Of a stretch of DNA of 64,000 bases, positions 49,219 through 50,742 are shown piece by piece. A program made the translations under genes and the position numbers. Each line of letters starts with the position of its first letter. The stretch's first letter is position 1. Origin of the DNA: Patescibacteria group bacterium (GTDB taxonomy: Bacteria > Patescibacteriota > Microgenomatia > UBA1400 > UBA1449); assembly GCA_050942955.1 (NCBI GenBank), contig JBMNOG010000003.1, positions 3,049-67,048 of the forward strand, in the 5' to 3' direction. Under the pieces are notes generated by a model that was not told the DNA's origin, did not search any database, and was given only the letters and a program-made list of their open reading frames with translations.

Positions 49219-50433
49219 TTGGCAATCAAATCCTATAGTTTAATTATGGAGTCATACGACTATCTTATTCAGGAACTACTATCTCAAGAAGGCAGGAACA
49301 TCCGGTCAAATACGTTTTTCCTTACAGCTTACTATCCAATTAAAAAACGGGAAAAGGCTTCTCTTCAGAAACTCAAAAAGGTGGTCTTAGATTGGCTCGA
49401 CACTCACTTCCGTAGGAATAAAGATATCGGTCAATTTTCCCGAATACACCATCAGCTATTGAAAACAGTGAGTAAACATCTAGAAAACTTTGAGCAAACA
49501 GATAAGGGTCTAGCTATTTTTGCTAAATTTAGTGCTTCCAGTAGGGTTGATAAAAGAAACAGAAGCATTCCCAAAAAGCAGGTATTAGTTGTTTCGCTCT
49601 CAAGGAGGCCTCGGGAAGAGTTTAGTGTAGGTAAAACGTACGACCTAGACCAGCTCGTCTGGATCCTCAACCAAAAACTTGAGTCAGTAGTTTTAAATAT
49701 CTCCCGTAAAAAAGCTGACGTTTATATTCTTGATGAGGGAAAACTTGGATTTATCACTCAAGTAGCAAATGATTACCTCTATAGTGGCGAACGAGAATAT
49801 CTCGAAGTACACCGGCCCACCCGGTCAGATTTTGCCGTGTACGGAACTGGTTCAGACAGATTTAAGCAGAGACAAAAGGATGAAGACATGCGCTTTCTAA
49901 CAGAGTTAGGTAAGTATATAAAAAATGAACCTTTACTGAAACTTCAGTTTGAGCATCTGGTCGTCGTCTATTCACATCTTTTTGAAGAGCACATTGATGA
50001 TTTTATAAAAAATCTTACCCATTCACTCCCTTACCTTACCCCAATTACTATCCAAAAAGATATTCAAACAGAAAAGGAGTTACACCAGGAAGTTTTAAAT
50101 ACAGTCAATAAACATAAAGAGTACTCCCAAAAACAGCAATTAAAGCAGGCCAAGAAAGAGATGTATAAGTATATAGAAGACTGGCAGAGTGTTGCCAAAG
50201 CATCCAGACAAAGAAAAATTAACACCCTGTTTATTACTGCTAAAGCTAAAAGTCCTGGTTACGTACTTAACCGGGATCTGGTGTATACGCATCCAGCCGC
50301 AGGTAGCCGGCGCGTAGAAAATATTGCTCCCTGGATAGTTCACAGTGCTCTTAAGGCTGATAGCCAGATAGTGGTTTTTCCAGAGTCTCTTCCCGAAACC
50401 GAAACCCCTATTGCTGCCTCACTGCGCTATTAA
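49219..50433 (+). CDS. eRF1/Pelota-superfamily-like protein (bacterial aeRF-like) in which the GGQ motif is replaced.
   Basis: The central region AVYGTGSDRFKQRQKDEDMRFLTELGKYI...LVVVYSHLF aligns in pattern with eRF1 domain 2 (...[25 protein letters not shown]...LILAG), with GTGSD in place of GGQ. 404 aa, consistent with a three-domain architecture. Confidence 0.4.
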   Translation: MAIKSYSLIMESYDYLIQELLSQEGRNIRSNTFFLTAYYPIKKREKASLQKLKKVVLDWLDTHFRRNKDIGQFSRIHHQLLKTVSKHLENFEQTDKGLAIFAKFSASSRVDKRNRSIPKKQVLVVSLSRRPREEFSVGKTYDLDQLVWILNQKLESVVLNISRKKADVYILDEGKLGFITQVANDYLYSGEREYLEVHRPTRSDFAVYGTGSDRFKQRQKDEDMRFLTELGKYIKNEPLLKLQFEHLVVVYSHLFEEHIDDFIKNLTHSLPYLTPITIQKDIQTEKELHQEVLNTVNKHKEYSQKQQLKQAKKEMYKYIEDWQSVAKASRQRKINTLFITAKAKSPGYVLNRDLVYTHPAAGSRRVENIAPWIVHSALKADSQIVVFPESLPETETPIAASLRY

Positions 50434-50436
50434 CAT

Positions 50437-50742
50437 ATGAAACCAAAAGAACTAAGAGTCATCGGAGAAAATACACTCATTACTACTGAGATGATAAGGT
50501 TAATTAATCAAGAATTTACCCAAAAGTTGTACAGATATTTTCCTAATTATTTACAGGATATAGAAAGAGCTCGTTTAACCGTTTCGACTAGCAAAGGAAT
50601 TGGTTATGCTCTTACTCTCGATATGTGGTTTCCTGAGATAGGACATACTCAAACTGAAGTTATAAAAGACAGTTTTTACTACGCCATTTTAGATCTATGG
50701 AAAAGAATAGAGAGAATGGCTAAACAATATCCTCAAATTTAG
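50437..50742 (+). CDS. Ribosome hibernation factor (HPF/RaiA/YfiA, S30AE family)-like small protein.
   Basis: 101 aa. The pattern LRVIGENTLITTEMIRLINQEF..KL.RYF....DIERARLTVS....GYALTLDMWFPEIG.....IKDSFYYAILDLWKRIERMAKQ matches the HPF topology and spacing. It starts 4 nt after the upstream gene. Confidence 0.4.
   Translation: MKPKELRVIGENTLITTEMIRLINQEFTQKLYRYFPNYLQDIERARLTVSTSKGIGYALTLDMWFPEIGHTQTEVIKDSFYYAILDLWKRIERMAKQYPQI

Follow-up and report, generated by a model that had tools for sequence, protein, structure and literature searches.

A divergent Balon-family protein and a short HPF encoded by a probable ribosome-hibernation operon of a Patescibacteria genome

Introduction

Two adjacent genes in the metagenome-assembled genome (MAG) of a member of the Patescibacteria raise the question of whether their products act together on the ribosome and, if so, whether they rescue it or lay it to rest. 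The genes occupy positions 49219-50742 of a 64,000-nt segment of one contig of this genome (hereafter "the window", whose positions are used as coordinates throughout). The upstream gene specifies a protein reminiscent of the eRF1/Pelota superfamily and the downstream gene a protein reminiscent of the hibernation factors HPF and RaiA. An earlier note on this DNA had left the choice open, proposing a "rescue or hibernation module". The evidence presented below favours the second term of this alternative, rescue being less well supported: the locus is most probably a two-gene ribosome-hibernation operon that combines a divergent Balon-family protein with a short HPF.

There are precedents for such a pair. 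Burroughs and Aravind (2019) defined the baeRF-1 clade, reported a conserved baeRF-1/HPF neighbourhood and predicted that baeRF-1 proteins are non-catalytic blockers of the ribosomal A site acting together with YfiA/HPF (PMC6514570). The same authors identified Gln as the defining catalytic residue in aeRF1, VLRF-1 and bacterial release factors, and found the catalytic loop to be poorly conserved in many baeRF-1 families (PMC6514570). Helena-Bueno et al. (2024) subsequently characterized Balon, which inhibits translation and occupies the A site of ribosomes that also carry RaiA; Balon is non-catalytic, preserves the nascent chain, and is encoded by a gene "most frequently adjacent to RaiA" (PMC10901736). 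Two expectations of the earlier note, namely that bacterial members of the eRF1 superfamily are essentially uncharacterised and that their linkage to a hibernation factor would be new, are at odds with this literature: the Balon/HPF pairing is already known, having been predicted in 2019 (PMC6514570) and demonstrated experimentally in 2024 (PMC10901736). The main text of the Balon paper makes no mention of candidate phyla (PMC10901736), and a literature search combining Balon and hibernation-factor terms with Patescibacteria returned nothing on Balon in Patescibacteria. The novelty of the present locus is thus modest. It lies in a divergent clade largely missed by Pfam, in its occurrence in bacteria of the candidate phyla radiation (CPR), and in a conserved motif at the site equivalent to the GGQ loop of eRF1.

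Results and Discussion

Gene starts and operon layout

Both open reading frames (ORFs) exist where they had been placed; the larger one, however, is likely to be shorter than the 404 aa originally assigned to it. The latter figure applies to an ORF running from a TTG codon at 49219 to 50433 on the forward strand. In the database copy of the protein (NCBI; ACOX6V_01745, "MAG: hypothetical protein", Patescibacteria group bacterium) translation starts at ATG 49246, which gives 395 aa, and in the homologue alignments every homologue begins at the Met equivalent to 49246. Because the NCBI call and all of the homologues agree, ATG 49246 is the likely start, and TTG 49219 was rejected as a start codon.

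At the junction between the two genes, the stop codon of the first (TAA, 50431-50433) is followed by the trinucleotide cat and then by the ATG of the 101-aa gene. The interval of 4 nt given previously is correct as start minus end, the actual spacer being 3 nt. No Shine-Dalgarno sequence is evident in the junction sequence ahead of the 101-aa gene, whose translation is probably coupled to that of the larger gene. As the next gene downstream is convergent (50745..51290, reverse strand), the operon comprises two genes. No intrinsic terminator was found after it, and a sigma-70 promoter scan gave no signal above background.

Assignment of the larger protein to the Balon/baeRF-1 family

Used alone as a query, the larger protein gave nothing meaningful in Pfam, NCBIfam or PHROGs, and a word-indexed homologue search recovered a single relative, with 31% identity. 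An exhaustive HMMER search through 1.84 billion cluster representatives yielded 163 relatives at E<=1e-3 (each standing for a cluster at 50% identity), nearly all of them 360-420 aa in length. Full-length sequences, 127 in total with the window protein included, were used to build the family alignment and profile designated A2. The best match of this profile in the PDB is Balon from Psychrobacter urativorans (8RD8_B, E=6.3e-14), profile positions 58-390 being aligned to Balon residues 51-369; Balon Msmeg1130 ranks second (8V9J_z, E=4.9e-6), and matches to archaeal Pelota (2.2e-4) and eRF1 (about 0.03) are weaker. The nearest Pfam model is baeRF_family3 (PF18845), which matches 14 of the 127 family members, eight members being matched by eRF1_3; most of the family, the window protein included, falls below every Pfam baeRF model.

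An AlphaFold2 model of the larger protein built on A2 (predicted local distance difference test, pLDDT, 92; predicted template-modelling score, pTM, 0.85) has the three-domain aeRF1-type fold, with N, M and C domains. When this model was compared to the PDB with Foldseek, the five best matches were all ribosome-bound Balon structures, with template-modelling (TM) scores of 0.54-0.73 and whole-chain alignments of about 400 columns (TMt 0.58-0.73). The top match was 8V9J_z (E=1.9e-18, TMq 0.68, TMt 0.73). Next in order came aRF1/eRF1 and then Pelota/Dom34. Verification of the eRF1/Pelota fold, which the earlier note had advised, therefore gave a positive outcome, with Balon heading both the structural and the profile (E=6e-14) comparisons.

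Three features stand out as conserved in the A2 alignment: a Y29-x-P31 motif in the N-terminal part, h-G-T/S-G at positions 199-202, and a C-terminal A-A-x-L-R-Y/F, which in the larger protein reads AASLRY. Y29 is found in 117 and P31 in 89 of the 127 sequences. Even more conserved (121/127) is G338, at the start of a β-hairpin in the C domain of the model (338-347, with strands at 338-341 and 345-347). Here, the HMM (hidden Markov model) alignment to Balon is unbroken through profile positions 328-358, whereas the alignment to Pelota breaks, 31 profile positions facing 13 Pelota residues. The hairpin matches the β-hairpin insertion of Balon and baeRF-1, and may, as in Balon, contact EF-Tu.

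Comparison with the known Balons (P. urativorans Balon and the mycobacterial Msmeg1130 and Rv2629; PDB 8RD8/8RDV/8RDW/8V9J/8V9K/8V9L) brought out further common traits. As in Balon, a three-domain aeRF1-like architecture is combined with the lack of NIKS and GGQ and with the β-hairpin segment of the C domain; the GGQ site is of the G-x-G-S-D-R type (GDGGSDR in Balon, GTGSDR in the window protein), the C-terminus ends in A-x-x-R-Y/W, and the gene sits beside a RaiA/HPF gene in a stress-response neighbourhood. Unlike Balon, the window family conserves Y29-x-P31; moreover, the window protein comes from a MAG of the Patescibacteria (CPR). With the baeRF-1 clade the protein shares the status of a bacterial aeRF-1 homologue without the catalytic Gln, operonic with YfiA/HPF (PMC6514570), as well as the retention of N, M and C domains and a two-strand insert in the Pelota-like domain. 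The resemblance to aRF1/eRF1 and Pelota/Dom34 extends to the superfamily, the domain order, the helix following the GGQ loop and the C-terminal AA-x-LRY/F; it does not extend to NIKS, GGQ or Pelota loop A, none of which was detected in the protein. Matches to these two groups are also more distant (E=0.03 and 2e-4; TM 0.2-0.5), and the host is a bacterium, in which canonical RF1/RF2 are expected.

Since the single-sequence and two-sequence searches came out empty, membership in the Balon family rests on the family profile and on the predicted structure, which together support the larger protein being a divergent member of the Balon/baeRF-1 family. Several observations weigh against this assignment. 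By itself, the protein does not match any Pfam baeRF model; a two-sequence profile run against the PDB found no Balon, only chance matches to protein 4.1; and identity to the solved Balons is only 12-14%. The full profile aligns to Balon only from Balon residue 51, leaving the N-domain without alignable similarity, and a profile limited to the N-domain found no Balon in the PDB, only spurious heme-oxygenase matches. Finally, neither the HP motif by which the N-domain of Balon contacts A1492/A1913 nor the lasso loop and bL27 trap of its middle domain could be mapped in the larger protein.

These same comparisons bear on the most serious competing explanation, that the protein is a Pelota/Dom34-like rescue factor. 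On ribosomes stalled by damaged or truncated mRNA, such a factor would move into the vacant A site and promote the splitting or recycling of the subunits, not storage; the HPF-like gene would be merely co-regulated. Pelota is the third-best class of matches, belongs to the same superfamily with the same architecture and likewise misses the catalytic Gln, and Dom34-like, non-catalytic relief of stalled ribosomes is one of the options entertained for baeRF-1 (PMC6514570). Balon is nonetheless the closer relative, both by profile (E=6e-14 versus 2e-4) and by structure (TM 0.6-0.7 versus 0.2-0.4), and the Pelota alignment breaks in the C-domain segment where the window family and Balon share an insertion. 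Furthermore, bacteria are not known to have an ABCE1 partner for splitting, and both the stress-island context and the close, conserved linkage with an HPF gene (see below) fit hibernation. We thus regard a Pelota-like role as unlikely and favour hibernation by a Balon-family protein.

JGI names the larger protein "hemerythrin", and the PDB names P. urativorans Balon (8RD8/8RDV/8RDW) "Methyl-accepting chemotaxis protein". Both labels are annotation errors, and either could mislead searches based on names.

The smaller protein is a short member of the S30AE family

The Pfam model Ribosomal_S30AE (PF02482) matches the 101-aa protein over profile positions 2-83 of 88 with E=0.022 and 15.9 bits, the gathering cut-off being 23.7. 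No relative was returned by a word-indexed homologue search, and phmmer against the PDB gave chance matches only. The assignment was obtained through the neighbours of the homologous large genes. All eight of the ORFs of about 100 aa scanned beside such genes pass the Pfam S30AE threshold, and BLASTP aligns the 101-aa protein to one of these S30AE-positive neighbours (locus L009) at 5e-15. An HMM of the subfamily, built from 24 PF02482-positive members with the window sequence left out, scores the 101-aa protein at E=6.4e-15, and this ORF is its sole match in the 64-kb window. In the PDB, the neighbour-gene family profile matches the solved HPF 6QBZ (1.7e-11) and the RaiA of the Balon-RaiA ribosome (8RD8_D, 5e-5). 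By transitive homology, then, the 101-aa protein is an S30AE member. It falls in a short-HPF subfamily of Patescibacteria whose other members pass the Pfam threshold.

The AlphaFold model of the protein (pLDDT 90.8) has a β-α-β-β-β-α fold, with strands at 7-11, 46-52, 56-65 and 69-77 and helices at 17-44 and 80-97. Its 11 best PDB matches in Foldseek are all HPF, pY, PSRP1 or protein Y on ribosomes (TM 0.55-0.77), a result to be read with the proviso that the model was built on a multiple sequence alignment of S30AE proteins and is biased to that fold. The HPF/RaiA pattern perceived in the earlier note is thereby vindicated. Size (about 100 aa) and fold are those of the short HPF/RaiA proteins (YfiA, protein Y). 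Because the chain stops directly after helix 2, at residue 101, the protein is of the short form (RaiA/short-HPF type); it has neither the C-terminal dimerisation domain of long HPF nor a RaiA-type extended tail.

Recurrence of the gene pair in other genomes

Whether the two genes occur together elsewhere was addressed with a degenerate-pattern scan of one genome per species, derived from an 11-sequence subset sharing [YF]DLDQL[VI]W. The scan gave 14 loci, to which exact-protein look-ups added four. The 14 scanned loci belong to Patescibacteria (Shapirobacteria, Saccharibacteria, Dojkabacteria) and Kosmotogaceae/Mesotoga, together with some MAGs that bear the label "uncultured Gammaproteobacteria" or "uncultured Pseudomonadales". 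Two loci, L003 and L006, are uninformative, as their sequence stops less than 100 nt from the gene. The pair is present in 11 of the 17 informative loci, window counted, hence at ten loci outside the window genome, which answers the co-occurrence question raised in the earlier note. The S30AE gene lies directly downstream in L005, L007, L008, L011, L012, L013, L016 and L017, and upstream in divergent orientation in L009 and L010. The genes are usually 1-3 nt apart, a spacing kept across diverged genomes. Recurring neighbours at these loci encode HSP20, BON (OsmY-like), YtxH, Transgly_assoc and NUDIX proteins, as well as a histidine kinase and a response regulator of the OmpR type. The HSP20, BON, YtxH, Transgly_assoc and two-component genes are of the same classes as reported for Balon genes (PMC10901736).

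The pairing is not universal, and the 101-aa protein is not a typical HPF. These points speak for a second alternative, in which the two genes are neighbours in a stress island without joint function, the smaller one being an HPF copy in decay whose product has little activity or none. At six of the 17 loci (L001, L002, L004, L014, L015, L018), the Balon-like gene has no S30AE gene next to it. Within its short-HPF subfamily, no member is more divergent than the 101-aa protein: it carries GIGY, FPEIG and MAKQYPQI in place of the consensus RWGY, LPGK and RQIKEYK, the basic tail usual at the C-terminus is missing, and the net charge is no more than +2. It could therefore be functionally weakened. 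Set against decay are the intact ORF, the S30AE fold predicted with high confidence, the 1-3 nt spacing maintained in diverged genomes and the wide conservation of the pairing in the wider family. We consider fortuitous adjacency to a decaying gene decidedly unlikely, and retain a joint function in hibernation.

Two observations made in this survey deserve mention. At one of the loci lacking HPF, seen in L018 (2291-2996) and L019 (106-811), a YtxH-like gene and an 89-aa ORF without Pfam match precede the Balon-like gene, the ORF lying 4 nt upstream of it. The short-HPF HMM does not match this 89-aa ORF, which may represent an alternative partner. Separately, loci L008-L011, titled "uncultured Gammaproteobacteria" or "uncultured Pseudomonadales", share the Balon-like/short-HPF/regulator arrangement with the Patescibacteria loci, and the gene coordinates in L008 are nearly equal to those in the Shapirobacteria loci L005 and L007. 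These third-party assemblies may have been assigned to the wrong taxa.

A conserved loop without Gln at the GGQ site

Neither the peptide-release motif GGQ nor the stop-codon motif NIKS occurs anywhere in the larger protein. An extension of the profile alignment to eRF1 would place the GGQ-equivalent site of the 395-aa protein at Y199-G200-T201-G202. That a central segment parallels domain 2 of eRF1, with the GGQ replaced, had been proposed from a hand alignment, and this alignment was reproduced by the family HMM. The family profile pairs the eRF1 segment ending in LVLAGSADF with the helix after the motif, whose family consensus reads "edkverreekenkkflndv...ylvvfySssf". Extending this alignment by four residues without gaps would bring the GGQS of eRF1 opposite the family hGTG, with Thr201 standing in the place of the catalytic Gln. 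Across the 127 family sequences, the three positions of the site are occupied by G in 83, T in 70 and G in 100; basic residues follow the conserved G-T/S-G, and no conserved Gln is found in or near the loop. In this respect the window family differs from the broad baeRF-1 families, in which conservation of the loop is poor. In the model, a long loop without secondary structure spans residues ~175-200 (pLDDT 66-73) and is directly followed by a helix (201-227), an arrangement consistent with a loop directed to the peptidyl-transferase centre.

The well-conserved G-T/S-G and the basic residues imply a functional constraint on the tip of the loop, and could be taken as the mark of an active release factor or peptidyl-tRNA hydrolase that uses hGTG instead of GGQ; this was rejected as highly improbable, since no Gln is present, in or near the loop, and since GDGGSDR in Balon resembles the GTGSDR of the window protein, yet Balon is non-catalytic. 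A phage or defence element was also rejected, given the absence of PHROG matches and the chromosomal stress-island context.

Upstream boxes, promoter and a candidate regulator

The features of the operon and of its presumptive control region are collected in Table 1. The earlier note had drawn attention to a phased GTAAGAA motif upstream of the genes. The motif is there, although on the coding strand it appears only as the reverse complement, and its middle copy has two mismatches: the forward strand reads TTCTTAC at 49184, CTCTAAC at 49195 and TTCTTAA at 49205, and these copies precede ATG 49246 by 62, 51 and 41 nt. GTAAGAA pairs at an exact 11-bp phase number six in the window as compared to 0.05 expected in shuffles, and all six fall between 51.6 and 57.4 kb. 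The same boxes recur in the related loci L009-L012, L016 and L017; in L009, L010, L011 and L017, clean TTCTTAC-N4-TTCTTAC pairs precede the start of the Balon-like gene by about 62 and 51 nt.

Phased direct repeats are typical of binding sites for OmpR/PhoB-family regulators. One such response regulator is encoded in the window, and the orthologous gene adjoins the Balon-like gene in L001, L009, L010, L016 and L017. The GTAAGAA boxes are probably sites for this regulator, a candidate for the control of the whole island, the operon included.

Table 1. Positions of the operon genes and of associated features in the window.
Feature	Position (strand)	Remarks
Balon-family (baeRF-1 clade) aeRF1-like protein, 395 aa	49246..50433 (+)	mechanical ORF reaches TTG 49219
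Short S30AE-fold HPF/RaiA-type protein, 101 aa	50437..50742 (+)	
Three roughly phased heptamers (0, +11, +21 nt)	49184..49211 (-)	62-35 nt upstream of ATG 49246
-10-like hexamer TATAGT	49234..49239 (+)	ends 6 nt before ATG 49246
OmpR/PhoB-family response regulator (receiver + Trans_reg_C, Pfam)	53955..54626 (-)	3.2 kb from operon
GTAAGAA-like cluster	51626-51654 (+)	intergenic, stress/two-component island
GTAAGAA-like cluster	52768-52785 (+)	intergenic, stress/two-component island
GTAAGAA-like cluster	53876-53915 (+)	intergenic, stress/two-component island
GTAAGAA-like cluster	57317-57339 (-)	intergenic, stress/two-component island

A second peculiarity of the leader region is the very short distance between the -10-like hexamer and the initiating ATG. 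In L005, L006, L007, L008 and L016, the homologous gene has a TATAAT sequence 6-8 nt ahead of its start codon, and no Shine-Dalgarno sequence precedes the Balon-like gene where the -10-like hexamer abuts it. L017 and the Kosmotogaceae loci have a GGAGG leader instead. The combination of a hexamer 6-8 nt from the start and no Shine-Dalgarno sequence suggests that the operon transcript may be leaderless.

The strongest triple GTAAGAA box stands directly before the annotated start of a 183-aa ORF (51657-52208, forward strand), which shows a weak match to the cyanophycin-synthase-like N-terminal domain PF18921 (E=2.5e-6) and no ligase domains. Because the box abuts the annotated start, the true start of this ORF may lie further downstream.

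A model for the operon and its implications

The analysis establishes the folds, the kinship with Balon and HPF, the loss of the motifs, the recurrent gene pair and the conservation of the upstream boxes. From the Balon family we infer ribosome binding, simultaneous occupancy by the two proteins and induction under stress; the identity of the regulator is likewise an inference. The Balon-like protein would take up the A site of 70S ribosomes that are idle or stalled, probably with the aid of EF-Tu. It would leave peptidyl-tRNA unhydrolysed while holding the peptidyl-transferase centre in an inert state. The short HPF would lie in the 30S mRNA/tRNA channel at the same time, and the pair would jointly switch ribosomes off and protect them under stress. 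Because the HPF is without the dimerisation domain of the long form, the hibernating ribosomes are expected to be 70S particles and not 100S dimers. The two genes would be co-transcribed as part of a stress island, probably under the control of an OmpR-type two-component regulator recognising the phased GTAAGAA boxes.

One could also envisage that the Patescibacteria/Kosmotogaceae clade is a functionally distinct variant of Balon and not just a distant orthologue. This reading is allowed by the conserved h-G-T/S-G and Y-x-P motifs, by the apparent wiring to a dedicated OmpR-type two-component system through the boxes and by the possibly leaderless mRNA. Conservation of the loop tip and of Y-x-P suggests that these elements might make contacts of their own with the reduced ribosome of the CPR, at its peptidyl-transferase and decoding centres. 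We think a distinct function rather doubtful, and view the protein primarily as a divergent Balon.

Patescibacteria have small genomes and trimmed ribosomes, and presumably go through long periods of dormancy. The locus described here would extend the Balon-plus-RaiA/HPF hibernation module to these bacteria of the CPR, leaving the current picture of ribosome hibernation unchanged. On the practical side, an HMM made from the 127-member alignment would mend the annotation of about 160 sequence clusters, and the conserved boxes, together with the neighbouring response regulator gene, offer a testable handle on the hibernation switch in bacteria that cannot yet be cultured by themselves.

Genes surrounding the operon

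The operon is flanked, at 46983-49102 and 52223-53830 (both on the reverse strand), by genes for small stress-associated or membrane proteins. The families represented include PF04020 (holin-4_2-like), DUF5320, a DUF134 helix-turn-helix protein, YibE/F, a YtxH-like protein and Transgly_assoc (GlsB/YeaQ type). Further along the window are a PAS histidine kinase with a stand-alone receiver (54699-57262) and a pyruvate formate-lyase with its activase (42892-45897). A pyruvate formate-lyase-like gene and a two-component pair are also found near the Balon-like gene of L001, suggesting that L001 and the window share partial synteny.

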